The notes under the pieces were generated by a model. The model had not been told where the DNA came from, made no database searches, and worked only from the letters and a program-made list of their open reading frames with translations. DNA of 60,222 nucleotides, counting the filler, from Nitrospirae bacterium MYbin3 (GTDB lineage Bacteria; Nitrospirota; Thermodesulfovibrionia; Thermodesulfovibrionales; Dissulfurispiraceae): NCBI GenBank assembly GCA_002753335.1. It is 4 parts of 4 records of this genome, joined end to end, with 100 filler letters (N's around TTAATTAATTAA, not from the genome) between each part and the next. Parts side by side here need not be neighbours in the genome. Positions count along the whole stretch, not along the records: positions 2,733 to 33,055 come from PEAD01000033.1; 3 more parts are not named here. One strand, 5' to 3'. Of this stretch, positions 5,887 to 33,155 are shown piece after piece. The translations under genes and the position numbers were made by a program. Within the stretch, counting starts at the first letter, position 1, and every line of letters starts with the position of its first letter.

Positions 5887-6975
5887 ATGTTTAAGTCAGC
5901 AGTAAATCAAGAAAATAGAAGAATAATATCATTTTTTACAAAATGGTTCTATATTGGGTTTGGGGTTCTTCTTTTAGGAATTACTTTGGAGTCATACAAG
6001 CAAAATATAATCAAAGAATGGATGTTTGCCTATAGTATTGCCATCGAGTTTTTAAAAAATATAGGTATTGCAATAATTATTTCTAACATTTTTTCATACA
6101 TATTAGGCACTCAAGAATTCATGAGTTATTTAAGGCAAAAATTAATAGAAATAGTTGTTTCTAAAGATTTCCTTCATAAATTAAACAGGGAAGAAAGAAG
6201 AGAGATGCTGAAAATAATTTTGAAACCTACAAAAGAGTTGTCAGAAATATATTCAGGCATAAATCAATACTTTAGTAGATATATTGAAGACTCCATGAAC
6301 CTATTCCACGCTCATTTTAGAAGCGGATACATGATTGTAGCAGAAGCATCTATGGATTCCGAAACCAATCGTGTCAAGGTTGTAAGTGAAATGGATCATC
6401 GAATTTATAGAGTCATGGGTGAATATGAGAAATTGCCAGTCGGCTTTGAAGATGAAGATTCAAAAATGCTTTCAACAAAGCTGTTTTCCCCTAACGGCGA
6501 AGAACAATCATCCATTGATTGTAAAGTTGTGAACAAGGCTGAATTGAATGATGATATATTGGCAAAAGACCCTGCCTTAATAAACGGAACTTTATCGGAA
6601 ATTCCAGAATCATTTAAGAAATACACACAATTAGATGTCAAAAGAAAACTTGTAGAATATGGCGTTGATCATTGGCACTTATACACTTACAGAGCAAAAA
6701 CACCATGTGATAAACTAAACATTAGTCTTATGTGCAGAGATGGTCTCGAAGTTAAAAAAGTTGTCACTTATGGGCGTGGATCAAATTTCAAAATTGATAA
6801 AAGCACAGATAATTCAAGGGTTACTGTGTCTTGCAATGATTGGTTAGAACCCGGTTTTGGTGTTGCTATTTTGCTTGCAAAAAATACTCGCCAATTGCCT
6901 CTCGCAAGTGAAGTACCACTTGATGCTTCATTAATAAATGCAACCCAACAATCAAATCCAGCGGACGGGGTATAA
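5887..6975 (+). CDS. Hypothetical two-TM membrane protein carried as an integron-type cassette
   Basis: Two N-terminal hydrophobic helices and a beta-rich C-terminus. Bounded by GTTGGGC (5851) and ACCCAAC (6943). Confidence 0.75.
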   Translation: MFKSAVNQENRRIISFFTKWFYIGFGVLLLGITLESYKQNIIKEWMFAYSIAIEFLKNIGIAIIISNIFSYILGTQEFMSYLRQKLIEIVVSKDFLHKLNREERREMLKIILKPTKELSEIYSGINQYFSRYIEDSMNLFHAHFRSGYMIVAEASMDSETNRVKVVSEMDHRIYRVMGEYEKLPVGFEDEDSKMLSTKLFSPNGEEQSSIDCKVVNKAELNDDILAKDPALINGTLSEIPESFKKYTQLDVKRKLVEYGVDHWHLYTYRAKTPCDKLNISLMCRDGLEVKKVVTYGRGSNFKIDKSTDNSRVTVSCNDWLEPGFGVAILLAKNTRQLPLASEVPLDASLINATQQSNPADGV

Positions 6976-7030
6976 ACGTGTTTGATTTTTCACAGCCCCC
7001 CCAGCCCGCTACTGATTTAAGGCGTTTGCT
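6943..7030 (+). other. attC site (slightly degenerate)
   Basis: ACCCAAC-aatca-AAT[C]CAGCGGACGGG...CCCGCTACTGATT-taaggc-GTTTGCT: R''/L''/L'/R' layout with extrahelical C. Confidence 0.65.
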
Positions 7031-7056
7031 AATAAATGGAATAGATATGGTCAACC

Positions 7057-7668
7057 TTGATTTTTGGTTTTAAGAGAAGAGGAGCTTCAAGATACAATCT
7101 TGAGAGATACGTATATTTGAAAGGACGGCATAAGATAATTTTTGTTGGGGGAGTCCATGGGGTCGGAAAAACCACATTGTGTGCGTCCTTGTGCTCGAAA
7201 TTCGGTATCGAACACTATTCTGCAAGCAGTTTCATTTCGAAAATTAAACAGGTCAAGTTTTCCTCTAAAAGAACCTCTGATATCGAAAGAAACCAAGACA
7301 TTCTGATCACTGCTCTTGATGAATTCACAGGTTATGATAAATATTTTCTCTTGGATGGGCATTTTGTTTTGATCGACAACAAGGACAACATTATCAGAAT
7401 CCCATACTCCACATATGCTGCGATGTCGCCTGCGGCCATTGTTTTATTGAATGATACGCCGGAGGCAATTTTTCTGCGACTTAAAGAGCGAGACAAGGAG
7501 AAAATTACTGTTGAACAATTAAGAGCTTTGCAGGAAGAAGAAATCGGCTATTCAAAAGAAGTAGCATCCGCTTTAGCGATACCTTATCTACTAACCAATC
7601 CCTTGACCGAAATAGAATTGATTTCCGATTTTGTGGACAAACTGCTTGCAGAAGGAGGCGTTAAATGA
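7057..7668 (+). CDS. Adenylate/nucleotide kinase-like P-loop protein (AAA_17-like)
   Basis: IIFVGGVHGVGKTT Walker A, LLDGHF, RLKERD. Start may be TTG at 7117. Confidence 0.8.
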   Translation: MIFGFKRRGASRYNLERYVYLKGRHKIIFVGGVHGVGKTTLCASLCSKFGIEHYSASSFISKIKQVKFSSKRTSDIERNQDILITALDEFTGYDKYFLLDGHFVLIDNKDNIIRIPYSTYAAMSPAAIVLLNDTPEAIFLRLKERDKEKITVEQLRALQEEEIGYSKEVASALAIPYLLTNPLTEIELISDFVDKLLAEGGVK

Positions 7669-9176
7669 GAGCACTTTTAGACACCAACATCCTTATTCAC
7701 AGAGAGGCAAGCAGGGTCGTAAATGAGGAAATAGGAACTCTTTTTAATTGGCTGGACAAGCTGCACTATGAAAAATGTATACATCCTCTTTCGCTGGACG
7801 AAATAAAAAAGCACCAAGATGCCTCCGTTGTGAAAACAATTCATACAAAACTTAAGAACTATAACACGTTGAAGACGGAGGCTCCAGAAGACGCTGAGAT
7901 TGCGGCTATAAGAAAAAAATATGACAGCAATGAAAACGACAGTATCGATACATCGCTGCTTAAAGAGTTATTTGCCAAAAGAGTAGACTGCTTGATAACA
8001 GAAGATAGAAAGATACATATCAAGGCTGCCGACCTTTGCATCTCTGATCGAGTCTTTACGATTGATGATTTCTTGGAAAAGATTACAGCGGAGCATCCAA
8101 GCCTTTCTGAATACAAGGTCTTATCTGTAAAGAAGGATTATTTCGGAAACATCTCTATCAACGATCCGTTCTTTGATTCATTCAAAGCGGATTATGATGG
8201 CTTTGAGGAGTGGTTTAATAAAAAGGCTGACGAGGTCGCATACATTTGCCAGTCAGAAAATAAGACTTTACTTGCATTTCTATACATTAAAATAGAGAAT
8301 GCAGACGAGAATTATAGTGATATTGCGCCAGTATTAGCTCCAAAGAAACGCTTGAAAATAGGTACATTCAAGGTAATTTCCAACGGATATAAGCTGGGCG
8401 AACGATTCCTGAAAATTGTCTTCGATAACGCTCTGAGAAATAACGTTGATGAAATTTATGTGACTATTTTCCACACGAGGGAGGAGCATATTCGTCTAAT
8501 CGGCCTGATAGAGGATTGGGGTTTTAGATATCATGGTATTAAACATTCCCCCTCAGGCGACGAGAAAGTGTTCACCAAAGATTTTAGGCCACCCCCGGAA
8601 AGTGAAAATCCCAAGAAAACGTATCCATTCATATCGAGAACCCGGCGATATTTTATCGTCCCAATTTATCCAGCATATCACACGGAATTGTTGCCTGATT
8701 CGATTCTGAACAATGAGAGTCCGTCAAATTATATTGAAAGTGAGCCGCATAGAAATGCCATCCAGAAGGTATATGTATCTAGGTCAATATTCCGTGATTT
8801 GGTCCCTGGGGACATCATCCTGTTTTACAGAACTGGCGGCTATTACGAAGGTGTTGTGACCACGATAGGAGTTGTTGATAGCGTGGTGACTGATATAAAA
8901 AATGAAGATGATTTTATACGACTTTGTAGAAAAAGAAGCGTTTTTAGTGACACTGAATTAAGAAGACACTGGAATTATAGTAGTAATAGACCGTTTATCG
9001 TCAATTTCCTGTACTTATATTCTTTACCGAAGCGGCCGAATTTGAAGACTCTTATCGAAAAAGGGATAATAAGGGATGTTGAAAGCGCTCCAAGAGGTTT
9101 TGAACAGTTAAGCGCTTCTAAATTTAATGAAATACTAAGGATATCTGAGACCAATGAAAGTTTTATTATCAATTAA
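7665..9176 (+). CDS. PIN + GNAT acetyltransferase + PUA/EVE-like fusion protein
   Basis: PIN: LLDTNILI...ITEDR. GNAT: KIGTFKV...GYKLGERFL. PUA-like: IVPIYPAYH...PGDIILFYRT. ATGA overlap with the kinase gene. Confidence 0.8.
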   Translation: MRALLDTNILIHREASRVVNEEIGTLFNWLDKLHYEKCIHPLSLDEIKKHQDASVVKTIHTKLKNYNTLKTEAPEDAEIAAIRKKYDSNENDSIDTSLLKELFAKRVDCLITEDRKIHIKAADLCISDRVFTIDDFLEKITAEHPSLSEYKVLSVKKDYFGNISINDPFFDSFKADYDGFEEWFNKKADEVAYICQSENKTLLAFLYIKIENADENYSDIAPVLAPKKRLKIGTFKVISNGYKLGERFLKIVFDNALRNNVDEIYVTIFHTREEHIRLIGLIEDWGFRYHGIKHSPSGDEKVFTKDFRPPPESENPKKTYPFISRTRRYFIVPIYPAYHTELLPDSILNNESPSNYIESEPHRNAIQKVYVSRSIFRDLVPGDIILFYRTGGYYEGVVTTIGVVDSVVTDIKNEDDFIRLCRKRSVFSDTELRRHWNYSSNRPFIVNFLYLYSLPKRPNLKTLIEKGIIRDVESAPRGFEQLSASKFNEILRISETNESFIIN

Positions 9177-9528
9177 ACCGGAATACGCAGAAAAAATTCT
9201 TGACGGTGAAAAAAAATATGAATTTAGACGAACAGTATTTAGAGACACTTCGATAAAAAAAGTTGTTATTTATGCTTCAAGTCCAATTAAAAGGGTTATT
9301 GGAGAATTCGAGATTGATTCTATTATAGCCCTTGGTATAGATGCCCTTTGGAAAAAAACAATGCATTGCGCTGGCATAGAAAAAGATTTCTACTATAATT
9401 ATTTTTATGGTAAAAAAATCGGCTATGCTATCAAAGTAAAAAAGACAAGAAGATACCGTAAGCATATAGGATTAAACGAGTTAAATGTTAAATATCCGCC
9501 CCAATCTTTCTTATATCTTACGGCTTAA
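9154..9528 (+). CDS. ASCH domain protein
   Basis: LLSIKPEYAEKILDGEKKYEFRR...IYASSP...PPQSF; overlaps the upstream gene. Confidence 0.88.
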   Translation: MKVLLSIKPEYAEKILDGEKKYEFRRTVFRDTSIKKVVIYASSPIKRVIGEFEIDSIIALGIDALWKKTMHCAGIEKDFYYNYFYGKKIGYAIKVKKTRRYRKHIGLNELNVKYPPQSFLYLTA

Positions 9529-9595
9529 CTGATGTATCGATAGTCGTAAGCTAAAACAAACAGATATCTTGGCGAATGCACTACACATCTTCTTC

Positions 9596-9874
9596 CTATG
9601 CGTCAACTGATATATCAATCGCAAATACCAGAACGCAATTGCCGAAATGTTTATGACTTATAACAGTTTTTTTATACCCTTTCCATTTCTTGCGAAGAAT
9701 TCGACTTGTGTCTCCTTTTTTAGGGTATCCAAGCAACAGATGGATTTCAGTATATTCTCTATTATGCAACCTAAGTCCCCAATAATCATTACAAGTACGA
9801 TATTCTTCTGTTTTGCTACCATTACGAATAGCTTCCCAATATTCACGTTTTAGGTGAAGAATAAGTGGTTTCAT
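9596..9874 (-). CDS. Small ASCH/PUA-like protein
   Basis: LHLKREYWEAIRNGSKTEEYR matches the GxKxxExR motif; GAGG RBS. Confidence 0.75.
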   Translation of the reverse strand: MKPLILHLKREYWEAIRNGSKTEEYRTCNDYWGLRLHNREYTEIHLLLGYPKKGDTSRILRKKWKGYKKTVISHKHFGNCVLVFAIDISVDA

Positions 9875-10321
9875 AATTTATCAACCTCGATGATTCCATA
9901 TGGTGTACCGATAGTCTGCGACATAACTTCATGATCGAAAAATCCTGTTAGTTTCTTCATGATATATATTACTTTCAGGAGTTATTTAAAACGACAGCGA
10001 AATGAGTTGAGTACTTTTTATTACGACAAATCCGTATTCTCCTTTATATAGGCTCTGTTATCAATATAAAACCTACTTTTAGCATACCACTGCTTTCAGT
10101 TTAAACTCAGCCTACGTAAATCTCTTTGCGGCAAGTCGTGGGGGCATAAGAAAGCGTGGACAAGTATGCTCAAAGATTTATTACAACAAATTTGAGCCCA
10201 TTTCTAGTAGGGGCCATTCGTACTAGCCTTGGCGTACTGTTGCCGAAGCCTGATTGAACCGCGCTCTAACCCTTCGTTGTCAATGAAGTTCGTATATATA
10301 TCATATTATGGAGGAACGAAA

Positions 10322-10549
10322 ATGGAACGATATGCAAATCGTGGAGGTGACTCTTCAGTAGAAGGTTATGAAATTGAACATGACTCAATAACTGTACAAT
10401 TTCGAGACGGCTGGAAATATCTCTATACCTATCAAAGCACTGGGGCCGAGGATATTGAGCGAATGAAGTTATTGGCAATCTCAGGTCATGGATTAAATAG
10501 TTTTATCACTCGTGTCATAAGGAAAAGATTCGCTTCAAAGTTTCGCTGA
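10322..10549 (+). CDS. Small KTSC-like protein (75 aa)
   Basis: GGAGG RBS then MERYANRGGDSSVEGYEIEHDSITVQFRDGWKYLYTY...GHGLNSFI. Confidence 0.65.
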   Translation: MERYANRGGDSSVEGYEIEHDSITVQFRDGWKYLYTYQSTGAEDIERMKLLAISGHGLNSFITRVIRKRFASKFR

Positions 10550-10831
10550 TAGATTTTTGAGGCCGACTTAACCAGACGCAAAGACAAACGTGGACAAAAT
10601 TCGCCTATTAGAGATCTTCAACTAAGGAAGGACACTAACGACCACATGAACAGGCTATGAAAAGGAGTATTTTCGGATGTTTCATAGTACCCTCTCAGAA
10701 TATCTGGATTATAAACATTGGGACAAGCAGCCAAGCCGCTTAGCGCCGCGATTAATTAATATGGCGCATCCGACTTCTTAGTGGGTCTATACAATACATA
10801 CCGGATACGCCTAAATAATATAGAAAGCTAA

Positions 10832-11464
10832 ATGGGAGCGATGCCAACATCAGACATGCCAGGCCATGTAAAATTGCACGATCGAGTTTATAACGCCTTA
10901 GACCATTGTCAAGAATCGAGAAGTGTCGATTTTAAAGCCTCATCATCATGGGATGATTTGAAATTGAAGATCGTTCGAACCGTTATCGGAATGGGCAATC
11001 TACGCGATGGCGGCATTATTATAATAGGGGCATCAGAGAATGGGGATTCATGGGACTTGACTGGGATAACAAACAACCACCTCAGCACATATGATGTCGA
11101 TGATATTATTGACTCGGTAAATAAGTATGCTTCGCCTCCAATAAAGATAGACATAGTATTAGTTAAATATAGGAATGACGAAAAGTTTCTTGCCTTTCAA
11201 GTTCATGAATTTAGCAATACCCCGTTTGTTTGTAAGAAAAATACGCCTGATGGCAACAAAATACTTTGTGCGGGTGAATTTTATGTAAGACCGGCAGGGA
11301 AGCCCAGAACTATTAAGGTGTCATCCGCAGAAGATATGCATGACCTTCTCGAACTTGCTGCAGAAAAGCGCGCGCGTAGGATTCTTGAAGTTGCTCATCG
11401 AATTGGTCTCAAACCTACAGAAACAGCAAGCCAACGATTTGATGAAGAACTGGGAGGGTTATGA
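10832..11464 (+). CDS. Schlafen/AlbA_2 domain protein
   Basis: ESRSVDFK...GMGNLRDGGIIIIG...FYVR motifs. Confidence 0.85.
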   Translation: MGAMPTSDMPGHVKLHDRVYNALDHCQESRSVDFKASSSWDDLKLKIVRTVIGMGNLRDGGIIIIGASENGDSWDLTGITNNHLSTYDVDDIIDSVNKYASPPIKIDIVLVKYRNDEKFLAFQVHEFSNTPFVCKKNTPDGNKILCAGEFYVRPAGKPRTIKVSSAEDMHDLLELAAEKRARRILEVAHRIGLKPTETASQRFDEELGGL

Positions 11465-12201
11465 AAGAAAAAATCGAACTACCTGTGCCAGTTCTCGATA
11501 ATCCGCATTGGCGCGTCAATTTTCGCCTTGCGGAATATAAAGAACAATTAGTCCCATCTCTTGGAAATTGTTTTGAAATTATAGAAAAAAATAAGTTGAG
11601 TTTGCGGGGATGGGATTATCCACATCTTAGCAGACGTGACGCAGATCGGGGTTACGGCAAAAATTGGATTGCCTCTTGGTCAGATTTCTTGGGTCACTAT
11701 GAATATTGGCGCTTCTATCAAAGTGGTCAATTTCTACATTTGTTTAGTGTTAGAGAAGCAACGGAAACAGAATGGAGAAAAAAGCTCGAAGCTGAAATGA
11801 GGTCTCATCTTTCATCTATGAGTGATATAGATTGGGAAACCGTACCTGGCTTCATCTCCATAGTGAACTTTACTTATAACGTAACTGAGATTTATGAGTT
11901 TGCGGCTCGGTTATGTCAATCTCAAGTTTATCAGGGACCCATAAATATCAAAATTGAACTTAGGGGGATAAAAGGGTTTGTTCTCTCTGCGCCGTGGAAA
12001 AGAGCATGGTATAGTTATTATGCTGCAAGTGAAGATATCCTCGAAAGAACAGCCGATTATGAAAGCGACGACCTTGTAGCCTCCAGCAAAGAAGCGGCCT
12101 TAGAATCAATCGTTTGGTTTTTTGAAAGGTTCGGATGGCTTAATCCTACGCCAAGTGTAATATCAAATGATCAAGAGAACTTAATAAAGGGACGATACTA
12201 A
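11461..12201 (+). CDS. Hypothetical partner of the AlbA_2 protein
   Basis: Translationally coupled (ATGA overlap); LRGWDYPH...WRFYQSGQF. Confidence 0.7.
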   Translation: MKEKIELPVPVLDNPHWRVNFRLAEYKEQLVPSLGNCFEIIEKNKLSLRGWDYPHLSRRDADRGYGKNWIASWSDFLGHYEYWRFYQSGQFLHLFSVREATETEWRKKLEAEMRSHLSSMSDIDWETVPGFISIVNFTYNVTEIYEFAARLCQSQVYQGPINIKIELRGIKGFVLSAPWKRAWYSYYAASEDILERTADYESDDLVASSKEAALESIVWFFERFGWLNPTPSVISNDQENLIKGRY

Positions 12202-12238: not shown

Positions 12239-12273
12239 TGACACTTTGTCACACTATAGATGACAAGGTGTCA
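12239..12273. promoter_or_regulatory. Tandem palindromic upstream activator sites TGACA-N3-TGTCA
   Basis: TGACACTTTGTCA (12239-12251) and TGACAAGGTGTCA (12261-12273), centres 22 bp apart, about 80-115 bp upstream of the predicted sigma54 start. Confidence 0.65.
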
Positions 12274-12326
12274 TATAATTTAGTCAGTTAATCACTATTT
12301 CCATGTATTTTCCCCTTCAAGACATA

Positions 12327-12342
12327 GGGTACAACAATTGCA
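12327..12342 (+). promoter_or_regulatory. sigma54 (-24/-12) promoter
   Basis: GGGTACAACAATTGCA has exact GG-N10-GC spacing and is close to TGGCAC-N5-TTGCW. Confidence 0.7.
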
Positions 12343-12421
12343 AAGCTGTTTATTAAGAGGCTGCCTGGCTTTATGGTATTATATGCCTCTTAACTAAATA
12401 GCCGTTTCTTGTGGGGGAAGA

Positions 12422-14302
12422 ATGGGGTATATTAGTCGCTGTTTGGCTTGTGCAGTGTTTTTTCTGGCGTTTGCATTTCCGACTTCAATCGTAATTTCCG
12501 GAGAGATGTCTGAGCAGGAAAAGAAGCTTCTGAAGCTGTATTTCAGCGAAGACGAACTTGTTGAATCCACTACCCGTAGTCTCAAACTGGCAACACAGGC
12601 CGCAGAAAACATAATCGTCATAACGTCCGAAGACATAGAGCGCACAAACGCCAAGACCCTCGCAGATATAATGAACAGCATAACTGGCGTACAGGTTTTC
12701 ATGACCGGATGGGGCGCAAGCTCTTCAGCTCTTTATATACAAGGCTCTGAACAGAGGCATGTGGCAGCTTACCTTGACGGAGTTCTCCTGAATACTGTGG
12801 GCAGCAATGCTGTTGAAGCTGGCAGTATACCCGCTCAGATGATAGATAAGATAGAGATAATCAAAGGCCCGGCATCTTCATCATGGGGATCTTCTTTAGG
12901 CGGAGTTATAAATATCTTCACCAAAACCGGAGTATCCTTCGGAAAAGCCAATGGCACGCTAATTGCAAATCAGGGAGAGAAGGGCACGGGCGACTATAGG
13001 TCCGAAATTTACGGAGAACTCGGCAACTTCAACTACTATATGACGGGCGGTAAGATGATAAGCGACGGATTGACACCAAATAGCGGTAATGACGGCAGAA
13101 ACTTCTACGGCAAGTTCGGTATGAAGTTCTCACGAGACATGAAGCTTTCTTTTACTTCGTTGTATGCAGATGCCGACCGTATGGGCGGGGAAAGCGAGCA
13201 GATGAATATACGCATGGAAAACCCTTTCAAAAAATCCCTTCAAACAGCTTCTTTGGATATTAGACCTGCCAAAGAAATCAAGATTAATGCCTCAGTAAGA
13301 ATGTCCAATTTTTATGTCAGGTCTATAACCAGAAGAAGGAGTACAGGAGTCGACATCCAAAACTTGTCATCAAAAGATTCAGGGTATGGAGCTAGCTTAA
13401 AGGCATCTTATCAAAGCGGAATGCACAATGCAGTCCTAGGCACAGACTTAGACGCAAGATTATATGAAGACGCAAATATAGACAGTGGATTAAAGAAGCA
13501 GAAAAGATGGTCAGCTTTTTTGAATGATACTGTATCTTATGGCGACATTGCGGTTACCCCTGGATTAAGGTATGACCATGTCGGAACTGCCAATCCATAT
13601 GTTTCTTCAAGTCTTGGTATAGCCTATAAAGCCTCGCCTTCTACAGTATTAAGAGGGTATATGTCAAAAGGTTTCAGCACTCCACCTATGAGCTACACTT
13701 TTGCTCGCACAACTGTCTTCGTCCCTAACAAAGATCTCAAAAACGAACAGGTGACGTCTTATCAGGTTGGTGTTGAGACTATAGCTCCCAAATACTTCTG
13801 GCTCAAGCTTTCGGGCTTCAGGCACGACATAAAAGAGTCTATAACTACAGAGCAGGTACAGACGACCAAGTTTACTTACGCGAACAAGGAAAGACGCAGA
13901 AGAGAGGGTGTTGAGGCCGAGATTAAAACCCTTCCGGTCTTTGACACAGCATTGATATTCGGCGGCACGTTTATGGACAACCAGAATCTCGAAACACGCA
14001 AGGTGCAGAAAAATATTCCGCGCTATACATATGACGCGGCCCTCAAATACGACGATAAGAAGTCTATGAACGCCATGCTCAGGGGGCATTACATATGGTG
14101 GGAGGCGGATGCTGCGACCGGAGGACAGTACAACGACACGATATTCGATTTCATAGCCCACAAAACCATATACAAACAGAAGGATTCCAAGATTGAAGCT
14201 TATGGTTCGGTGAACAACCTTCTTAACGGTAAGCAGTGTGGTGTCGGATACTACCCCAATCCGAAACGATGGGTTGAGGTGGGGATGAAGTATTTTTTTT
14301 AG
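12422..14302 (+). CDS. TonB-dependent outer-membrane receptor
   Basis: Signal peptide, plug domain (IDKIEIIKGPASSSWG...GGVINI), beta-barrel, C-terminal Phe. Confidence 0.93.
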   Translation: MGYISRCLACAVFFLAFAFPTSIVISGEMSEQEKKLLKLYFSEDELVESTTRSLKLATQAAENIIVITSEDIERTNAKTLADIMNSITGVQVFMTGWGASSSALYIQGSEQRHVAAYLDGVLLNTVGSNAVEAGSIPAQMIDKIEIIKGPASSSWGSSLGGVINIFTKTGVSFGKANGTLIANQGEKGTGDYRSEIYGELGNFNYYMTGGKMISDGLTPNSGNDGRNFYGKFGMKFSRDMKLSFTSLYADADRMGGESEQMNIRMENPFKKSLQTASLDIRPAKEIKINASVRMSNFYVRSITRRRSTGVDIQNLSSKDSGYGASLKASYQSGMHNAVLGTDLDARLYEDANIDSGLKKQKRWSAFLNDTVSYGDIAVTPGLRYDHVGTANPYVSSSLGIAYKASPSTVLRGYMSKGFSTPPMSYTFARTTVFVPNKDLKNEQVTSYQVGVETIAPKYFWLKLSGFRHDIKESITTEQVQTTKFTYANKERRRREGVEAEIKTLPVFDTALIFGGTFMDNQNLETRKVQKNIPRYTYDAALKYDDKKSMNAMLRGHYIWWEADAATGGQYNDTIFDFIAHKTIYKQKDSKIEAYGSVNNLLNGKQCGVGYYPNPKRWVEVGMKYFF

Positions 14303-14354
14303 GCCGCGGCGCGTCTTCCGTCAAGGAGGGCATTTCAATAAATGGAGGTGCTGA

Positions 14355-14438
14355 ATGGAAATAGTAAGCACAGGCATAGGAGAGAAGGATATAGAATTTT
14401 GCTGTCCCAGCGCAGACATTATATTTCTTATCTGGTAG
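14355..14438 (+). CDS. 27-aa RiPP precursor peptide MEIVSTGIGEKDIEFCCPSADIIFLIW (geopeptide-like)
   Basis: Not in the ORF track. GGAGG RBS at 14344, acidic leader, Cys-Cys core; directly upstream of the rSAM/SPASM gene. Confidence 0.8.
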   Translation: MEIVSTGIGEKDIEFCCPSADIIFLIW

Positions 14439-14457
14439 GGGCAGACTAGTATCAACC

Positions 14458-14484
14458 GAGGGTTCGGGCTAGCACGAACCCCTC
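14458..14484 (+). terminator. Stem-loop between precursor and maturase (stability/attenuation hairpin)
   Basis: GAGGGTTCG-ggctagca-CGAACCCCTC inverted repeat without a U-tract. Confidence 0.55.
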
Positions 14485-14495
14485 AAATAAGGTTA

Positions 14496-15803
14496 TTGGT
14501 AAAAACAATGATTTCAAACTACTGCACAGTAATGGAGCATAAAGAGCGGCCTGACAAGAGCATACTCTTTTCTGCAAAGAGGGCATCTACTGTCATAATG
14601 CCTACCGACATGGCCAGATCTATAACAGAAGGAATTGTGCCTGATGAAAACCGGCAGGCTCTTTATGACTTGAGAATGATCACCGACAGCCCCGAAGACG
14701 AAAAGAGAGAGATGAGGGGATTTATCGAGCGATTCAATACATCAAGCGACAAATGGGGTGCGCTTCTTGTGCTTACGCTTGATTGCAATCTGGCCTGCAA
14801 ATACTGTTTTGAGGACTATGGTGGGTCGCAAAAGGGTGATTTTTACATGACAAAAGAAATAGCCGAAAGGTTCATCTTCTTTGCGGTCGAAAAATCCAGA
14901 CACAAAAAACAGATAAGCGTGACCTTCTACGGAGGGGAGCCTCTTCTCTGTATGGATATAATAGAGTATGTTTCCAAATACATAAGACTTTATGCAGACT
15001 CAAACGGCAAGATATGTTCTTTTTCTGTAATAACTAACGGTTCCTTGCTTACCGAAAAGAATGTTGGCAAGCTAGTGTCTTTCGGGGTCAAGTCAGCCAA
15101 GGTCACACTTGATGGCCCGGCATTGACGCACAACCATTACCGTCCTTTCAGAAACGGAGGGGGTTCATTCGATTCAATTATTAGAGGCATCAAGCATGCT
15201 TGTAATTTTATGCAGATACAGATAGGCGGCAACTACACCGAATCAAGCTGGCGGCAGTTTCCTGAACTGCTTGATTACATGATCGGAGAAGGCCTTACCG
15301 GAGACAAAGTTGCTGTTCGGTTCAGTCCAGTACTGGGCAAGGGCATGACCTCTATGCTTTCGGATTTCAATGAGGGCTGCCTGACCGCAAACGAGGAATG
15401 GGCGATAGAGGCAGGCATATCCTTGAGGGAAGAGGTTTTGAAGAGGGGGTACAGGATGAGGCCTGTCCGCCCGTCGCTTTGCGTTATAGAATCGGACGAT
15501 GCCTTTACGGTCAACTATAACGGAGACCTGTACAAATGTCCGGGCATGCTCGGCATAGAAGGTTTTTCGATAGGGACATTGACTTCAGATGTTCACGACT
15601 ATAGGCAGATATATGATATGGAAAACTGGAAGAACGAGGAATGTCTCTCATGCTCATATCTGCCTCTATGCTTTGGAGGATGCAGGTATGCAGGATATCT
15701 GAGAAGCGGCAAGATGTCTGGTGTAGATTGCAGGAAGGGTTACTACGACAAAGCACTGGTTGAGCTTGTCAATCAGGATATAAAATACAAGCTGCATATA
15801 TAA
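14496..15803 (+). CDS. Radical SAM/SPASM peptide maturase (geopeptide-maturase-like)
   Basis: CNLACKYC, FYGGEPLL, SPASM C...GDLYKC...CLSCSYLPLCFGGC...C. Start may be ATG at 14508. Confidence 0.9.
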   Translation: MVKTMISNYCTVMEHKERPDKSILFSAKRASTVIMPTDMARSITEGIVPDENRQALYDLRMITDSPEDEKREMRGFIERFNTSSDKWGALLVLTLDCNLACKYCFEDYGGSQKGDFYMTKEIAERFIFFAVEKSRHKKQISVTFYGGEPLLCMDIIEYVSKYIRLYADSNGKICSFSVITNGSLLTEKNVGKLVSFGVKSAKVTLDGPALTHNHYRPFRNGGGSFDSIIRGIKHACNFMQIQIGGNYTESSWRQFPELLDYMIGEGLTGDKVAVRFSPVLGKGMTSMLSDFNEGCLTANEEWAIEAGISLREEVLKRGYRMRPVRPSLCVIESDDAFTVNYNGDLYKCPGMLGIEGFSIGTLTSDVHDYRQIYDMENWKNEECLSCSYLPLCFGGCRYAGYLRSGKMSGVDCRKGYYDKALVELVNQDIKYKLHI

Positions 15804-15816
15804 CAAATAATCCCAG

Positions 15817-16722
15817 ATGAGTTCAATACTAACAAACATACTATCTGCATTGGCGCTTCTGCCTGTACTCATGCATGTAACGGTCTTGCATGCTCAGTCC
15901 TGCGACGTGGTCGCGGTGAGAAGCTTCAACTCCACACCTTACACTAACGCTATAAAGGGTTTTGAGGCATCATCTAAATGTTCGGTTTCGATAATAGATT
16001 CCGATGCCGGAAGGGCGACCATCCTGAGAGAGGTAAGGGAGAAAGAGCCCGATGCGGTATTAGCCGTCGGACAGGACGCGCTTAAAATAGTTCAATCAAT
16101 TACAGACATTCCGGTTTTTTTTACGATGGTTGTCGTATCGGAACTGCAGGCATCACGATTTCCGTCCAATTTTCATGGTCTGAGCATGGAGCCCAATCCT
16201 GAAAGCCACGCCAAGACACTTTCTGAGCTGTTTCAGAAGGGGTCTATGGTAGGAATCCTTTATGACCCGCAGCACTTGAAAGAATTTGTTGTAGAAGTAA
16301 AAGGTTATCTTGAAGACAGAGGGATGAAAACGACATTCAAGGAAGTTACGAACGCAACGTCTGTAGCATCGGCAATAGAGTCTCTTAAAGATAGGATAGA
16401 TGTGCTTTGGATGCCGGCCGATACGACAATAGCAAACGAAGAGACCATGAGGGCGGCAATGCTTTTCTCGATCAAAAACCGCATTCCTGTATATACCTTT
16501 TCAAGGAAATATGTAGAAAAAGGGGCCTTTGCCGCACTTCAGACCGCGCCATACGACTTAGGGTTGCAGCTTGGTGAAGCTGCCGCTAAAGTTATAAAAG
16601 GAAAGACACTTTCAAGGCGGTTTGATTATCCGGTCAAACACACACTTTTGCTGAACAGGAAGATGGCCAAGCGGTTTGGGATTGATCTGAATATGACCAG
16701 AAAGACGGCATTTGTGGAATGA
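15817..16722 (+). CDS. Periplasmic ABC-type substrate-binding-like protein
   Basis: Signal peptide; VLAVGQDA, GILYDP, DVLWMPAD, IPVYTFS...VEKGA motifs. Confidence 0.85.
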   Translation: MSSILTNILSALALLPVLMHVTVLHAQSCDVVAVRSFNSTPYTNAIKGFEASSKCSVSIIDSDAGRATILREVREKEPDAVLAVGQDALKIVQSITDIPVFFTMVVVSELQASRFPSNFHGLSMEPNPESHAKTLSELFQKGSMVGILYDPQHLKEFVVEVKGYLEDRGMKTTFKEVTNATSVASAIESLKDRIDVLWMPADTTIANEETMRAAMLFSIKNRIPVYTFSRKYVEKGAFAALQTAPYDLGLQLGEAAAKVIKGKTLSRRFDYPVKHTLLLNRKMAKRFGIDLNMTRKTAFVE

Positions 16723-18215
16723 CCGGAATAATTAATAGACTTAAAGCTCAATACAATAACAGCCTGAGTGTGAGGCTGATAATTCTTTTTGTAGGTGTTT
16801 CTCTGTCAGTCGTTGTGGTTTTCACCGGGATGCTTATATACCACCAGAAGAATGAGGCAAAAAGAGAGCTTATAGGACTCGGGAGACTTCTTGCTTCGGT
16901 CACCGCATCGGAACTCAAGGTGCCGGTATTTACAGGAAACAAGCAGGAGACGGCCGCGGTTATATCTAAGATACTCACACGCAAAGACGTAGTCTCTGCA
17001 ACGCTTTATGACTCTTCACTGAATATACTCTATAATCATGGAGTAGCGGAAAAGCCCGGGAAGATTAAAGGTTTGGACAAACTCCATGTAGATGATATAG
17101 CTGTTCATGAAAATACCTTTGACCTTTCTTTCTTGTCTCCAATAACGGTTGAGTCTTCTGTATCAGATGAAGGTATCTATTTTGAATCTAAAGATGCGCG
17201 CAAAAAGCATTTGACGATTGGATACTTGAGGATAGTGTTAAGCCGCAATGCAGAGTTCGATGAAATACATTCGGTGCTTGCCGCCAATGCAGCAATTGCG
17301 TTCACTCTTTCTCTGCTCGTCTCTGCGGTTATATTCTTTGCCGTACGCAAATCCCTTTCTGCTCTTTCGGACCTTTCGGGGGCCATGACATCACTTGGCA
17401 AAGGTGATGAGATAAAAACCGTGCCGGTCCACTCCGGAGATGAGATAGGAAGGATAGCGACAGCGTTCAACAAAATGGTTGGTGACAGGGTCAGGCTTGA
17501 AGAACAGTTGATATTGGTCAAAAAGCTCGAAACCGTTGCGGGCTTTGCAAAAGGAATAGCCCATGACTTCAATAATCAGCTAAGCACCATACGCGGGTTT
17601 GTATACATCCTTGAACAGTCAGTGCCTCAGGGCAATAAGGCTCACACCTACACCGAATATTTAAAAGATACTCTTACAAAGATGGAGCAGCATGTTCAGT
17701 CTCTGCTTGATTTCAGCAAGAATCAGGAGCTGCATATGCAAAAGACGGAACTCGGTGAGTATCTGTCCTACCTTGCCCCTGCTGCCAAACAGGCTGTAGG
17801 GGCGCATATTAAGTTCAGATATGAAGCTCCCCGTGAATCTCTGTATGCATCGATAGACAGAGTTCATATGGAAAGGGTGTTGAACAATCTTGTGCTTAAC
17901 GCCAGGGACGCCATGCCTGACGGCGGTGAGCTTATAATAAAAGCAGATATTTATAATCCGGACCTAAGGCAAAACGGGAACAGTCGGCCGGTACGCATAT
18001 CGGTATCAGATACCGGAATCGGTATGGACGAAGAAACAAAAGAAAGAATGTTTGAGCCCTTCTTTACCACAAAGGATGAGGGCAAGGGGACGGGCCTTGG
18101 TCTGTCAATAGTGTATGGGATAATAGAGCAGCACAAAGGAATCATAGATGTTGATACGTCGCCCGGCAAGGGAACCAGGTTCAACATCTATCTGCCGGCT
18201 GCAGGGGAGGACTAA
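16719..18215 (+). CDS. Membrane sensor histidine kinase (periplasmic domain, HAMP, HisKA, HATPase)
   Basis: Two TM helices, DEIG HAMP, AHDFNNQL H-box, NARDAM, DTGIGM, PFFTTK, GTGLGL. Confidence 0.95.
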   Translation: MTGIINRLKAQYNNSLSVRLIILFVGVSLSVVVVFTGMLIYHQKNEAKRELIGLGRLLASVTASELKVPVFTGNKQETAAVISKILTRKDVVSATLYDSSLNILYNHGVAEKPGKIKGLDKLHVDDIAVHENTFDLSFLSPITVESSVSDEGIYFESKDARKKHLTIGYLRIVLSRNAEFDEIHSVLAANAAIAFTLSLLVSAVIFFAVRKSLSALSDLSGAMTSLGKGDEIKTVPVHSGDEIGRIATAFNKMVGDRVRLEEQLILVKKLETVAGFAKGIAHDFNNQLSTIRGFVYILEQSVPQGNKAHTYTEYLKDTLTKMEQHVQSLLDFSKNQELHMQKTELGEYLSYLAPAAKQAVGAHIKFRYEAPRESLYASIDRVHMERVLNNLVLNARDAMPDGGELIIKADIYNPDLRQNGNSRPVRISVSDTGIGMDEETKERMFEPFFTTKDEGKGTGLGLSIVYGIIEQHKGIIDVDTSPGKGTRFNIYLPAAGED

Positions 18216-18220
18216 AGGAT

Positions 18221-19561
18221 ATGCTAACCGTATTATTGGTTGACGACGAGACGGCACTTCGCAAGATGACCGTTGGCGTACTTGAAACGGATAACATTAA
18301 TGTTATCGAGGCCGAAAACGGAGAAATTGCAGTTGAGAAATTCAGGTCTCAAAGGCCGGATCTGGTGCTGATGGATATCAGAATGCCCAATATGACGGGC
18401 GACAAGGCTCTAATTGAAATGAAAGCTATAGACCCGACAGTGACGGTGCTTATGATGTCAGCATACAGCGATTTGAATGTAGCGGTTGAGTGCATGAAGA
18501 ACGGGGCTTACGATTTCATCCATAAGCCTATCCAGTATCCTCAGCTCATGGCCGTAATAAAAAGGATCGCTTCCGAAAAAATGCTGATGCGTGAAGCCGA
18601 GGAGGCAAAATCATCACTCAAAAATTCCTTGGCGCATCAGTTCGGTTCAAGCGTTCCAATGAAAGAAGTCATAAACATGGTCATTAAGGCCTCCAAAACA
18701 AAATATTCAGTCATTATCCAAGGAGAGACCGGAACCGGAAAGTCGCTTGTAGCGAGAACGATACATGATATCGGCATGCGGTCAAACGGCCCGTTCGTGG
18801 TTGTGGACATAGGTTCAATCCCAGAGACGCTTGTTGAGAGCGAACTCTTTGGACATGAGAAAGGCTCTTTTACCGGAGCAGACAAAAAGAAGAAAGGCTA
18901 CTTTGAAGCAGCTGATGGTGGAACGATATTCATAGACGAAATACATAACATACCCCTTCACACGCAGGCCAAGATATTGCGGGTTGTCGAGGAAAAGAAG
19001 GTCTGTCCTGTAGGCAGCCATGTTCCTGTGGAAATAGATGTCAGGGTGATTGTAGCCACAAACATAGACCTCAAAAAAGCCGCTAAAGAAAAGAAATTCA
19101 GGGAGGATCTTTTCTTCAGACTGAATGAGTTCATGATAAACATCCCGGCTTTGAGGGAAAGGGTTGAGGACATCCCTTTGTTCGTAGATAAGTTCCTTTG
19201 TGAGGCAGCAGATGATCAAGACAAAAGATTGCTGAAGGCAGATGAACAGTCGATTGGTATTTTAAAGTCTGGCAAATGGGAAGGCAATATAAGAGAGCTA
19301 AGGAATGTCGTAAAGAGATCGGTACTGATGTCAGAAGGCGATACCCTTGACCCAGAACAGGTAAAAAAGTTGATGGGATCGGAAATTATGGATCTTTCCT
19401 ATGAGGATGATTTGTCTGTCACAATGACATTGAAGGAATTAGAGACCCAGATAATCAGGGATGCGCTGTCTAAGACCAAAGGAAACAAGAGAAAAGCGGC
19501 CGAGATTATAGGCATGAACTATCGGACTATGATGAGACGGTCGAAGGAGTTGGGGAAGTAA
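18221..19561 (+). CDS. sigma54-dependent response regulator (NtrC family)
   Basis: Receiver domain, GETGTGKS, ESELFGHEKGSFTGA, C-terminal Fis-type HTH. Confidence 0.95.
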   Translation: MLTVLLVDDETALRKMTVGVLETDNINVIEAENGEIAVEKFRSQRPDLVLMDIRMPNMTGDKALIEMKAIDPTVTVLMMSAYSDLNVAVECMKNGAYDFIHKPIQYPQLMAVIKRIASEKMLMREAEEAKSSLKNSLAHQFGSSVPMKEVINMVIKASKTKYSVIIQGETGTGKSLVARTIHDIGMRSNGPFVVVDIGSIPETLVESELFGHEKGSFTGADKKKKGYFEAADGGTIFIDEIHNIPLHTQAKILRVVEEKKVCPVGSHVPVEIDVRVIVATNIDLKKAAKEKKFREDLFFRLNEFMINIPALRERVEDIPLFVDKFLCEAADDQDKRLLKADEQSIGILKSGKWEGNIRELRNVVKRSVLMSEGDTLDPEQVKKLMGSEIMDLSYEDDLSVTMTLKELETQIIRDALSKTKGNKRKAAEIIGMNYRTMMRRSKELGK

Positions 19562-19712: not shown

Positions 19713-21512
19713 ATGAGATTGCCATCTTTCCGCGTACAGAACCAAAGAAGCGTTTTCCTAGCTGAATGTCTCGTTGTTCCAAAACTAATGGTGATTGCCG
19801 GCCCTAATGGCACAGGAAAATCTACATTGCTAAACGCGCTTCGTACTAGCTCTGGCGATGGTCCGATTCTTTATGTTGGACCTCATCGGAATGCACGACG
19901 CCAGGTTGTACAATGGAGACATTTACTCTCTACGCCAATCTCTTTTCAAGAACTTCTGACACGTTCAGATATCCCCGGTTATGAAGGAGTCGCTCTTGTT
20001 ACAGGGACGCGCGATCCTTGGAGCTTCGATGATTCCGCAAATTACTTAAAACATGGCCTCTGTCAGATTGAAGTTGATAGAAAGGATGCTATTGCCCAGC
20101 TATATGATAACCAAAAAGAGATAGGGAAAAACTCACTTCCAGATCCTTGGGCTCCATTAAAAGAGCTAACAAATAATTTACTCCCACACATGTCGTTCGA
20201 ACGAATTGATTCTACAAATAGAAATCAAGTTAGAGTGTTATGGCGGGTTCACGCTAAAGATACATTGGTAGATTTAGATGATCTTAGCTCAGGCGAAAAG
20301 GCAATAATTCAAATATTTTATCCTCTAGTTGAGGCAAGAACCAAAGATATACTTCGTCAGATTCAGCATGCTGATGGTGCACAAGCCCAGCCGGAAGTGT
20401 GTGTGTTAATAGACGAACCAGAATTGCATTTACATCCTAATTTGCAAATAAAGGTTTATGATTATTTAAGGTTACTTGCATCAAATGGGAAAACGCAAGT
20501 CATAATAGCTACGCATTCACCAACAATTGTAGAGTATGCTAATTTTGAAGAACTTTTTCTACTCCGACCGTCAGAATCTATTACGGCCGGCGAAAATCAA
20601 TTAGTTCAAGTTGCTACGGATGAAGAAAAACTTGCCTTCTTGCGCGGGGCTTTCGGAACAACCTCAAATCTGACGGCAATGCAATCGGTTGTAGTCGTTG
20701 AGGGTATCACACAAAATGATAGTTCAAAGACAGTTTCAGATCGTAAAATTTATCGTGCCTTGCATCCGGGTTTTGATCGTGTCACTCTTGTTTCAGGTGG
20801 TGGCAAATCCGAAGCTATTCGGTTAAGGCTACATATTCAAGAAATATTGCGGTCATTTTCATCGAATGTTACAGCGGTTGCTCTTCTTGATCGCGATCTT
20901 AGCTCAGATGCACCACCGGAAGGAGTGGTATACCTTCCCGTTTCCATGATCGAAAATTTACTTATTGATCCTGTTCCGATTTGGGAGTCTCTTCAAAGTG
21001 TTATTGAGAAAACACCTTTTAAATCACTTGATAACATCAATGCAGCCATAGATGAGATTCTAACCGAATTGACGGACTCCGAAATCCATCGCCGTGTTAT
21101 AAAGCTTCTTGGTTCGGTCTATTTTAGGCCATCAACGCCACTCTCGGAAATTCCGAAGCAAGCCCAAGATTATATCGACCAGATTCGTGTAAATTATTCT
21201 GAAAAAGCCATTGAAACGTATCGTACGAAAGCGGTTGCGGATGTCGATGAGTTAAGAAAGACGACACAAAGGCGTGAATACTTCCATGGCAAAGATGTTA
21301 TCGCATTATTTTCCCAAAAGTATCTTCATAAATCCGGAATGCCTCTAGGCATATTCAGGTATGAAACTGCACGTCACGCTAAATCAAGAAAAAAAGTAAC
21401 TAAATTTTTTGATGAATTCTTCTCTACTTATCTCCCTCACGTCCAGGCGCCGATAGTTGCCGAGAATAAAGAGGTTGTAGCTGCCGTGCCTGATAAAAAA
21501 CAAGGCGGCTAA
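19713..21512 (+). CDS. ABC-type ATPase + TOPRIM/DUF4435-like nuclease fusion (OLD/PARIS-like)
   Basis: GPNGTGKS, LSSGEK, LIDEPELHLHP, IATHSP; then VVEG...D, DRD and IEN motifs. Confidence 0.8.
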   Translation: MRLPSFRVQNQRSVFLAECLVVPKLMVIAGPNGTGKSTLLNALRTSSGDGPILYVGPHRNARRQVVQWRHLLSTPISFQELLTRSDIPGYEGVALVTGTRDPWSFDDSANYLKHGLCQIEVDRKDAIAQLYDNQKEIGKNSLPDPWAPLKELTNNLLPHMSFERIDSTNRNQVRVLWRVHAKDTLVDLDDLSSGEKAIIQIFYPLVEARTKDILRQIQHADGAQAQPEVCVLIDEPELHLHPNLQIKVYDYLRLLASNGKTQVIIATHSPTIVEYANFEELFLLRPSESITAGENQLVQVATDEEKLAFLRGAFGTTSNLTAMQSVVVVEGITQNDSSKTVSDRKIYRALHPGFDRVTLVSGGGKSEAIRLRLHIQEILRSFSSNVTAVALLDRDLSSDAPPEGVVYLPVSMIENLLIDPVPIWESLQSVIEKTPFKSLDNINAAIDEILTELTDSEIHRRVIKLLGSVYFRPSTPLSEIPKQAQDYIDQIRVNYSEKAIETYRTKAVADVDELRKTTQRREYFHGKDVIALFSQKYLHKSGMPLGIFRYETARHAKSRKKVTKFFDEFFSTYLPHVQAPIVAENKEVVAAVPDKKQGG

Positions 21513-21525
21513 AAATCAACCAAAT

Positions 21526-21585
21526 AAACAACCAGAGGCTCGACTGCGACGCGACCGAAGGCGGCGCGTCAGCCGCGTGTTATCT
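21526..21585 (+). other. attC site (60 bp)
   Basis: AAACAAC-cagag-GCT[C]GAC[T]GCG...CGCGTCAGC-cgcgt-GTTATCT with two extrahelical bases, just after the stop codon. Confidence 0.7.
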
Positions 21586-21708
21586 TGCTTTCTTCCTGCT
21601 ATACGTAACAAAGGGTATTTTTGATTCTCCTCTTACGTTCATACAAATCACAAGAGATCAAAACCTAATCGTATATTGTCCGTCAGCTCAAGTCATGGCA
21701 ACTACATA

Positions 21709-22452
21709 TTATCTGCTGTTTCCCTCAAAACCCTTATCCATTCTTGCCAAAGCAAGGAAGGACTGAGAAAGTGCTCCTATTTCTTTCGCGCTTAATTTGG
21801 TGCTTTTTTTATTTTCAACAATGTAATCATAAAGCTGCTCATCTTTAATGCAATGGACATAGCCAGTTGAACCCCATTTTGCTTCGAGATACGCTGATGG
21901 AAATACAAAAATGCCCTGAACATAAGTATCCAAAGATGAAAGGATTTTTGCTTTTTCTTTGATGGCCATGATCCTACGAGTAAAATTCTTGATCTCTGGT
22001 TTATTTGTAGACTTCCCATTAAGCAAGAGTTCCCCGCTGCCATCTGAGCTTACGATTCCTTTCCAATTTTTTGTGTCTATGACAAATGCTCCGGTAGGTC
22101 CTATAACAATATGATCAATATTGCCATAAGGCGTAGATAGGTCATGTATTATCCTGAAATCATCAGGAAATCCATCAAGTAGAAACCCAACTAAGGCCTC
22201 TCCAGTTGCTCCTTTACGAAAGGCCAGCCGTTCCTTTTCAATTGATTTAATTTTCTTTGAGAGATATTTCCAAACAAGTATAGCCACAACAATAAAAATT
22301 AAAGTCAGATAGTTTTGATTGACTCCAATCACATAGCCGCTAATGAATGCGAGAATAACAGCAAACAAATACAAAAACAGAAATATTCTAAGAAATTTAT
22401 CTGTAGACTGTTCTGTTACATACCTGCCTGTTTCGCCTAAAACCTTAGCCAT
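21709..22452 (-). CDS. NERD nuclease-related domain protein with two TM helices
   Basis: GATGE...HDL...NIDHIVIGPTGAFVIDTKNWKG. Confidence 0.85.
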   Translation of the reverse strand: MAKVLGETGRYVTEQSTDKFLRIFLFLYLFAVILAFISGYVIGVNQNYLTLIFIVVAILVWKYLSKKIKSIEKERLAFRKGATGEALVGFLLDGFPDDFRIIHDLSTPYGNIDHIVIGPTGAFVIDTKNWKGIVSSDGSGELLLNGKSTNKPEIKNFTRRIMAIKEKAKILSSLDTYVQGIFVFPSAYLEAKWGSTGYVHCIKDEQLYDYIVENKKSTKLSAKEIGALSQSFLALARMDKGFEGNSR

Positions 22453-23460: not shown

Positions 23461-24789
23461 TCACCGTAGCGTAAGACTTTCTTTTGCATGTTTTATCAGC
23501 GGCGAGAGGAAGAACTCTATGATCCTTCGCTTGTTCGTTTTTACCTCTACGCTCACTGTCATGCCCGGCGACAGCATCACATCCCTGCCATCAACATTGA
23601 TTTTTAGTCTCTCGGGTTCGACCCTCATCTTATAGACGGTCCCCAGCTTTTCATCCTCCACCGCATCGGGACTCAACCACACCACCCTACCGTTTATGGT
23701 GCCGTATTTTTGAAACGGAAAGGTGTCGAGTTTTATCTCGGCATCCTGTCCCGGCTTCAGGAACCCGATATCCTGATTCGATACAACAGCCTCTATGACA
23801 AGCGGCGTATCAAATGGCACGATGGTTACTGTTGGCTGTGCCGGTGTCACCACTCCGCCTATTGTATAAGAAGCCAGTCCATGGACCGTGCCGTCAACAG
23901 GTGAGCAGAGCTTTTCGAGCTCGTATTTCTTTTTGGCCTTCACAGCCTCAGCAGACAACGAGGTTATGTTCTTTTCTCGGTCAACGATATCGCTCAGTAT
24001 TATCTTCTCCCTCTCCCGCATCAGTGCGTCCAAGCTTTTCTTTGATTCTTCGAGGCTGTCCTTGTACTGTTTCACCGTTTTTTTCTGGGCCTCAAACTCA
24101 TGCAGAGTCGTATAGTAGTCTCTCTGCTTGTCAAGGTAATCCATCTTTGCGGTAAAACCTTTTTCAAAAAGGCTCTTGTACGCAGTCTCCTGTTCTTTGG
24201 ATATGGATGTCGTCTTTTCGAGTTTGGCAAGTATGGATTCAGCAGCGTGAAGAGCGTTTTCCTTTTGGGATATCACGAGTCGTAATGCCTCTTCTTTGGC
24301 CTTGTATTCAGCTTCTCTGGCGTTTTTAAGCTTCTTTTGAAATTCAAAGATATTACCGCTGTTGCGGTCGGACATGTCCCCTTTATGCAGTTCCGCCACC
24401 AGCCTGTCCCTATCGAGTTTATGAATGGACAACGCCTTTTCGGAGCTGTCAGCATCGGCCTGTTTGATAGTCGGATCAAGGTCTATAAGTACTTCTCCTT
24501 CCTTCACCCGCTGCCCTTCTTTGACATGTATCGCCCTGATTATACCGGTCTCCATAGGCTGCACTACTTTTACTCTTCCGTCCGGTATTATTTTGCCCCG
24601 CGCTACAGCCACCTCATCCACCATTCCGAAATAAGACCATAGAAAGACCGAAAGGGTAATGACAAGTATCAGCCAGATAAGCGCAACCTTGAGCGGCGGG
24701 GACGGTGTGCTCTCTATCTCAAGCGCAGGCGGAAGAAATTCGTATTCAAGATCATCGCTTTTGAATATGTCTCTGAGCCGTTTGATCAT
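23461..24789 (-). CDS. hlyD: Type I secretion membrane fusion protein (HlyD family)
   Basis: EFLPPALEIESTP, TM helix, coiled coil, FPFQKYG, PGMTVSVEVKT. Confidence 0.93.
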   Translation of the reverse strand: MIKRLRDIFKSDDLEYEFLPPALEIESTPSPPLKVALIWLILVITLSVFLWSYFGMVDEVAVARGKIIPDGRVKVVQPMETGIIRAIHVKEGQRVKEGEVLIDLDPTIKQADADSSEKALSIHKLDRDRLVAELHKGDMSDRNSGNIFEFQKKLKNAREAEYKAKEEALRLVISQKENALHAAESILAKLEKTTSISKEQETAYKSLFEKGFTAKMDYLDKQRDYYTTLHEFEAQKKTVKQYKDSLEESKKSLDALMREREKIILSDIVDREKNITSLSAEAVKAKKKYELEKLCSPVDGTVHGLASYTIGGVVTPAQPTVTIVPFDTPLVIEAVVSNQDIGFLKPGQDAEIKLDTFPFQKYGTINGRVVWLSPDAVEDEKLGTVYKMRVEPERLKINVDGRDVMLSPGMTVSVEVKTNKRRIIEFFLSPLIKHAKESLTLR

Positions 24790-26957: not shown

Positions 26958-26968
26958 CTATCCTACGC

Positions 26969-33055: not shown

Positions 33056-33155
33056 NNNNNNNNNNNNNNNNNNNNNNNNNNNNNNNNNNNNNNNNNNNNT
33101 TAATTAATTAANNNNNNNNNNNNNNNNNNNNNNNNNNNNNNNNNNNNNNNNNNNN
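33056..33155. other. Artificial contig linker
   Basis: N44-TTAATTAATTAA-N44. Confidence 0.98.

Follow-up and report, generated by a model that had tools for sequence, protein, structure and literature searches.

In the agr and com systems of Gram-positive bacteria, a precursor peptide, its maturase, a kinase and a regulator are encoded in one unit, and in LuxP/LuxQ-type signaling a binding protein feeds the sensor kinase. Products of radical S-adenosylmethionine (rSAM) enzymes have been connected with such signaling: streptide is quorum-controlled (PMC9389541) and ranthipeptide loss alters agr expression (PMC8102284), and in both papers what the rSAM enzyme makes acts as an output or modulator rather than a demonstrated signal. 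The geopeptide family of RiPPs (peptides that are synthesized by the ribosome and then modified post-translationally) is named by two protein models, TIGR04280 for the maturase and TIGR04229 for the precursor, which carry no function; a 2011 paper by Haft and Basu is said to define the TIGR models. Literature searches under geopeptide names and accessions returned nothing relevant and concept searches returned no study of the system, with subscription journals and supplements outside the search. Here we describe a geopeptide-maturase cassette in a 60,222-nt stretch of DNA (the window) from Nitrospirae bacterium MYbin3 (G000). Paired palindromes upstream of this operon are found again in front of other genes, among them a teneurin-like gene predicted to encode a toxin; the cell may therefore well sense its own peptide to switch on competition genes, and a peptide-sensing circuit driving a competition regulon is our leading reading, to which we assign an even chance.

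The six genes of the operon lie on one strand (12422-19561, +) with intergenic gaps of 52, 69, 13, -4 and 5 bp, so that the co-oriented, tightly spaced arrangement reported in the initial annotation of this DNA is confirmed. A TonB-dependent receptor of 626 aa (12422..14302; PF07715 plug and PF00593 barrel) is followed by a Cys-Cys precursor peptide of 27 aa, MEIVSTGIGEKDIEFCCPSADIIFLIW, whose gene has a GGAGG ribosome site (14355..14438), and by an rSAM/SPASM maturase of 431 aa with CxxxCxxC at residues 93-100 and a C-terminal Cys cluster (14508..15803). Next come a PF04392 solute-binding protein (15817..16722), in an operon without ABC permease or ATPase, a sensor kinase with sCache_4-like periplasmic, HAMP, HisKA and HATPase domains (16719..18215), and an NtrC-type activator (18221..19561). 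The activator carries a receiver (REC) domain, a sigma54 AAA+ domain with a GAFTGA-type loop and a Fis-type helix-turn-helix (HTH) with a genus-restricted helix, which bears out the annotation of the last gene as a sigma54 activator; its loop reads GSFTGA, as in four other G000 activators, and GAFTGA in the sister species. The maturase matches TIGR04280 over its full length (490.4 bits, cut-off 400), and the locus is a geopeptide-maturase cassette. The precursor lies directly upstream and falls below TIGR04229, with no match at this locus in a profile search, so the likeness to geopeptide families noted before holds for the enzyme and not for the peptide model. The precursor shares its CC and leader pattern with 55 of the 64 full loci, defined here as Nitrospirota loci with more than 3 kb upstream and more than 4.5 kb downstream.

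The cassette is inherited largely as a set. Of 301 genomes searched in the phylum 33 have a maturase match, as have 64 of 317 in the order, and the 99 loci analyzed comprise the window, the sister-species locus (L001, identical with G347:C145 and counted once), all 37 other places from the phylum search and 60 of the 71 new places from the order search; the 11 left out were mostly fragments or at contig edges. Among the 64 full loci, the receptor is present in 63, the binding protein in 57, the kinase in 54, all three in 54, the CC peptide in 55 and an NtrC-type gene in 20, counts in which short upstream flanks can cut off divergent kinases and related genomes are not independent. The co-occurrence of sensing genes with precursor and maturase, which had been proposed as a check, is thus confirmed. 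The output regulator varies, other loci having LuxR-type regulators or hybrid kinases, and the kinase sensor domain keeps its motifs.

The regulatory evidence, namely the palindrome pair, the sigma54-like sites that go with it, a base shift between species and the target genes, is what is new here. Both TGACA-N3-TGTCA palindromes that had been reported upstream are present (12239..12251 and 12261..12273), 22 bp apart, and such a pair occurred in none of 3000 dinucleotide shuffles of the intergenic region. In the sister species (G347), whose operon proteins are 76-85% identical with those of this strain, both palindromes are kept 22 bp apart and both arms of each have changed to TGCCA-N3-TGGCA. 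With one mismatch allowed, the paired motif has 3 copies in G000, 7 in G347 and one each in 2 of 315 other genomes; a backward-read control gave none in G000 and G347 and one palindromic match in each of two other genomes. A sigma54 site matching at least 7 of 9 consensus positions, scored against the known promoter consensus motifs, lies within 250 nt of 8 of the 10 pair copies, compared with 5.8-6.7% of random places, a figure for which variation at the -12 C was allowed post hoc, after TTGT and TTGA forms had been seen. Under the strict GG-N10-GC rule, all three G000 copies pass (chance about 2%) and only one of the seven in G347. Because of this distribution, the shared sigma54-like sites and the shuffle result, the pair behaves as a true sigma54 enhancer; each palindrome is a predicted activator site. 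Most of the sigma54-like promoters that follow the motif in G347 have TTGT or TTGA, not TTGC, at -12 (L070, L071, L072, L074 and L076). Two of the G347 sites, L073 and L076, share near-identical flanks, which suggests that the motif has spread by duplication.

The genes behind the motif may point to competition and surface functions. In G000, the second pair stands before a 197-aa open reading frame (ORF) followed by a teneurin-like RHS gene (contig C49), and the third before a Zn-dependent phospholipase-C-like gene followed by uncharacterized and RTX-repeat genes (C56); both pairs are near large serine recombinase genes. In G347, a pair precedes the orthologous teneurin-like gene (68% identical), which also has a small downstream ORF. 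Each of the two genomes has one teneurin-like gene, and each of these lies downstream of a pair. Other pairs in G347 precede a CheW-CheR-CheW-MCP cluster, a DUF3857 transglutaminase-like gene, an amidohydrolase gene, an ORF6N/WYL pair and a contig end. Teneurin-like, chemosensory, transglutaminase-like and Zn-phospholipase-C-like genes are thus found behind the motif, whose binder we assign by inference. Teneurin-like proteins are bacterial polymorphic toxins with immunity genes (PMC13018210), and regulation of their expression is absent from the accessible portion of that article; through the motif, with its ten sites, the expression of such a toxin would be tied to a peptide sensor. At L281:2305-11767, a pair stands before ORF6N and WYL genes directly upstream of a candidate cas cluster, judged by eye to be of type I-C.

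The operon's own activator is predicted to be the protein that binds the paired palindromes, and we consider this assignment quite probable. G000 encodes 21 activators, 20 of them with orthologs in G347, and 16 of the other 19 have orthologs of at least 58% identity in G202 or G288, two genomes free of the motif. The activators on C46, C57 and C64 have no such ortholog; they fail to explain the base shift because their recognition helices are identical in both species. In the operon activator the first polar position of the recognition helix has changed, from GMNYRTMMRR to GMTYRTMMRR (N to T), and a few other activators also differ between the species, at other positions. Half-sites are of the TGACA type in 10 of 12 cases in G000 and of the TGCCA type in 25 of 28 in G347 (P = 2×10−5, for sites that share ancestry). 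Moreover, among 317 genomes a close match to the activator HTH occurs only in G347 (E = 2×10−17; next match 4×10−10), a distribution that is also that of the multi-copy motif. Pairs stand on either side of the operon in G347, one ahead of it and one behind the activator gene. The earlier reading of the palindromes as NtrC-type activator sites therefore gains from their enhancer-like distribution and from the operon activator as best candidate, on the evidence of two genomes.

A second, LuxR-type regulon in family f21 (18 of 64 genomes) is marked by the 16-bp palindrome CTACCCGAACGGGTAG. Where the cassette has a LuxR-type regulator of one helix subtype, this palindrome stands upstream of the receptor, at a distance of 150-320 bp, in all 5 such loci (L051, L052, L054, L056 and L066). 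Copies also stand before an RHS-like gene (G091) and a teneurin-like gene (G115), and the targets across G091, G024, G099, G115, G236 and G245 are RHS-like, teneurin-like, transglutaminase-like and CARDB genes.

We propose that the SPASM enzyme would cross-link the peptide near its cysteines, as expected from its family, and that the modified peptide would leave the cell by an unlinked route, be taken back to the periplasm by the TonB receptor and be presented to the kinase by the binding protein. The phosphorylated activator would then bind the paired palindromes and open sigma54 promoters of a small regulon for competition and surface functions, the teneurin-like predicted toxin among them, with a sigma70-like promoter giving basal expression of the operon. 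Across the precursors, the CC is invariant and the leader is kept, and the tails are highly variable, from aromatic to basic; between the precursor and the sister peptide there are 8 non-synonymous and 3 synonymous codon differences. Distances between leaders follow the maturase (partial r = 0.38 and 0.31, P = 0.001; 43 loci, kin not independent), which bears only indirectly on a predicted modification of the precursor. In the same 43 loci, the core sequence tracks the receptor weakly (partial r = 0.15, P = 0.02). The peptide is the putative ligand of the sensing parts, and the pattern of core covariation would fit specificity at import with a shared moiety read in the periplasm; it would also fit an unrelated ligand, aromatic amino acids being what the solved PF04392 proteins bind. 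The genome, 94% complete, encodes rpoN and TonB genes, and the receptor is the sole PF00593 gene found in it. In many precursors, ten loci and others, a long Lys/Ala-rich, histone-like repeat leader precedes the CC core, and two cassettes (L221 and L240) carry tandem precursors in two copies.

Several observations weigh against this circuit or parts of it. The assignment of the binder and the covariation of motif and helix rest on two genomes, and the C46, C57 and C64 activators are candidate binders as well; no third close ortholog was found among the 80 metagenome loci kept (best 47%), and a low-depth relative in run X1 gave short contigs only, with no promoter differences listed. In the sister species a 10-bp gap removes the sigma54 -12 box, and the operon copy of the pair in G347 has no usable sigma54 site score. 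A sigma54 site of at least 7 was found in 1 of 19 NtrC-type cassettes, the window itself, against 1 of 37 others, and paired palindromes in 3 of the 19, the third of which overlaps a terminator-like hairpin. Eight of the 14 teneurin-like genes are in cassette-free genomes (P = 0.04, Fisher's exact test; 0.15 with the genus counted once), and an obligate link of teneurin-like genes to the cassette was not supported, with 6 of 14 in cassette genomes. The box CTACCCGAACGGGTAG is multi-copy in G115 and five more genomes that had no maturase match in the phylum search, and it therefore follows the regulator and not the peptide. The operon has neither exporter nor protease; only some 12 of the 99 loci have a major facilitator superfamily (MFS) gene next to the cassette, and an MFS relative in G000 is unlinked. 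Finally, core sequence and binding protein do not covary (partial r = 0.01, P = 0.41; 43 loci), and the solved PF04392 proteins bind Trp, Tyr and Phe according to the accessible text of PMC10443332.

The initial annotation had also proposed that the circuit induces itself through a sigma54 promoter. One GG-N10-GC element is present upstream of the operon (GG at 12328), in a candidate -24/-12 promoter (12327..12342, +) that matches 7 of 9 consensus positions, as did 95 of 3000 shuffles; the GG-N10-GC pattern occurred in 910 of the 3000 and was rejected as evidence taken alone. The sites lie upstream of the operon in both species and the sigma54 promoter in one only. Positive feedback through the site at 12327 is thus plausible in this strain only, where rpoN is present, and sigma54 autoactivation as a general design of NtrC-type cassettes was rejected on the 1/19 and 1/37 counts. 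A sigma70-like extended -10 box, TGGTATTAT (12374..12382, +), is part of a 25-bp block that the sister species shares without a change, and such boxes precede 18 of 68 receptors (6.9 expected). Because the -10 block is conserved while the sigma54 site is rare and lost in the sister species, the usual condition is probably basal expression from sigma70, with sigma54 feedback local at best. Searching other genomes for gene set and motif, as had been suggested, upheld the co-inheritance of the cassette and the recurrence of the motif, but not the retention of the sigma54 site at the operon; and the motif, read at first as acting on its own operon, marks a wider regulon that had gone unmentioned.

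It may also be that the peptide is sensed and the palindromes here give no positive feedback, being repressive or neutral at the sigma70 promoter, serving a divergent gene or binding another activator such as those on C46, C57 and C64. We consider this improbable. It draws on the sister species, where the sites are still perfect, a sigma54 promoter is missing and a divergent HU-like gene lies next to them, and on the 53-nt gap between site and promoter at this operon, which is shorter than any other in the set. In this strain, however, the upstream neighbor is on the same strand (ending at 12201) and not divergent, the pair is followed by a 7/9 site, and the base shift is left unexplained by the three other activators. 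A different cue is conceivable too, the binding protein and kinase sensing an aromatic amino acid or a competitor molecule from outside and the peptide being not the input but one product of the regulon, such as a narrow antagonist. The recorded ligands of PF04392, the missing covariation of core and binding protein, and the motif common to the operon and the predicted toxin gene would all suit it; it leaves unexplained that the receptor, the binding protein and the kinase sensor domain stay together with precursor and maturase while kinase cores and regulators are swapped, the identity to solved amino-acid binders is low (E about 1×10−14), and no immunity or export genes are conserved; we consider it unlikely.

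The modified Cys-Cys peptide might instead be a metal chelator or small cofactor retrieved by the receptor, with the kinase sensing the loaded form as in methanobactin- or PQQ-like systems. The invariant CC is consistent with this, as is a receptor that is the sole one of its genome and whose scores against its nearest models, those of B12, siderophore and heme receptors, all fall far short of cut-off; methanobactin operons likewise bring a RiPP together with a TonB importer, binding proteins and signaling (PMC3621798). Against it, no ABC permease, ATPase, dehydrogenase or metal-homeostasis gene recurs beside the cassette in the 99 loci, the regulon targets are toxin, chemosensory and surface genes, and the peptide tails run from aromatic to basic. 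Matches of 13/19 to the Fur box were reached in 15 of 68 upstream regions, scattered and poorly palindromic, compared with 13% of ordinary promoters, and Fur control of the cassette was not supported, no convincing box being found; a riboswitch or other known RNA was sought in 10 loci, where only tRNAs appeared. We therefore regard a chelator or cofactor as rather unlikely, and return to the sensing of the cell's own peptide as the leading reading.

The whole operon and its promoter region lie inside one contig (PEAD01000033.1, 2733-33055), and the window consists of contigs joined by runs of N at 2633-2732, 33056-33155 and 35676-35775; the one run inspected encloses a short linker. An RNA hairpin is predicted between peptide and maturase genes (14456..14484, +), and also in the sister species, with different letters. 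The flanks (5887-12201 and 19713-22452) are low in GC (36-41%) and carry defence-island-like genes with weak PIN and ASCH matches, Schlafen/AlbA_2, an AAA_15/AAA_21 ATPase and NERD; the sister-species cassette occupies a different neighborhood. On the minus strand at 23461-33055 are type I secretion genes (HlyD-type, and HlyB-type with a C39 domain), ahead of which is a large repeat-rich protein, RTX-like by eye and cut at the contig end. The HlyB/HlyD genes were not assigned as peptide exporter because they are on the opposite strand with their own RTX gene and are absent beside the sister cassette. A search for plasmid copies of the cassette found none at E = 1×10−40. Within one family, 13 cassettes have a common insertion site next to the gene for the ATP synthase beta subunit. 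In 11 genomes at least two cassettes are present, and their peptide tails and regulator types often differ, as if they were separate channels.

More broadly, geopeptides could form an rSAM-made pheromone family of diderm anaerobes, with TonB import, a periplasmic binding protein, a Cache kinase, strain-specific types and exchangeable NtrC or LuxR outputs that would control regulons of polymorphic toxins and surface traits; we hold this possible, at somewhat below an even chance. If true, it would amount to peptide quorum or kin sensing across the outer membrane, and would give a function to a named but unstudied RiPP family and a route for peptide signaling in anaerobic environmental bacteria. 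Its membership among quorum-sensing systems is unproven; co-inheritance is observed, and the core tracks the receptor weakly. The locus belongs with the geopeptide system by its full-length maturase and small CC precursor directly upstream and differs in a precursor below TIGR04229, and the enhancer and regulon are a new description for that system. With agr and com it shares the one-unit architecture, variable tails and competition genes as predicted output; in contrast to agr/com, streptide and the SCIFF ranthipeptides, two membranes are involved here, no exporter or protease is linked, and the predicted relay is a TonB importer with a periplasmic binding protein. Methanobactin operons, as far as the accessible text of PMC3621798 goes, combine a RiPP, a TonB importer, a periplasmic binding protein and predicted self-regulation in diderms, whereas the present cassette lacks MbnB/C, a MATE exporter, an ECF sigma/anti-sigma pair and metal target genes and uses a two-component kinase. 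The PEP-CTERM PrsK/PrsR regulon resembles it in an upstream motif and a -24/-12 site whose distribution follows that of one kinase/NtrC-type pair (PMC1569441, accessible part); the activator here scores 343.2 against a TIGR02915 cut-off of 502.6, its targets are others, and its motif is restricted to one genus. As in LuxP/LuxQ-type kinases fed by binding proteins, a principle present in the accessible portion of PMC10443332, a transporter-less binding protein stands beside a Cache-type kinase, but this one belongs to another binding-protein family and is linked to a TonB receptor and a RiPP.

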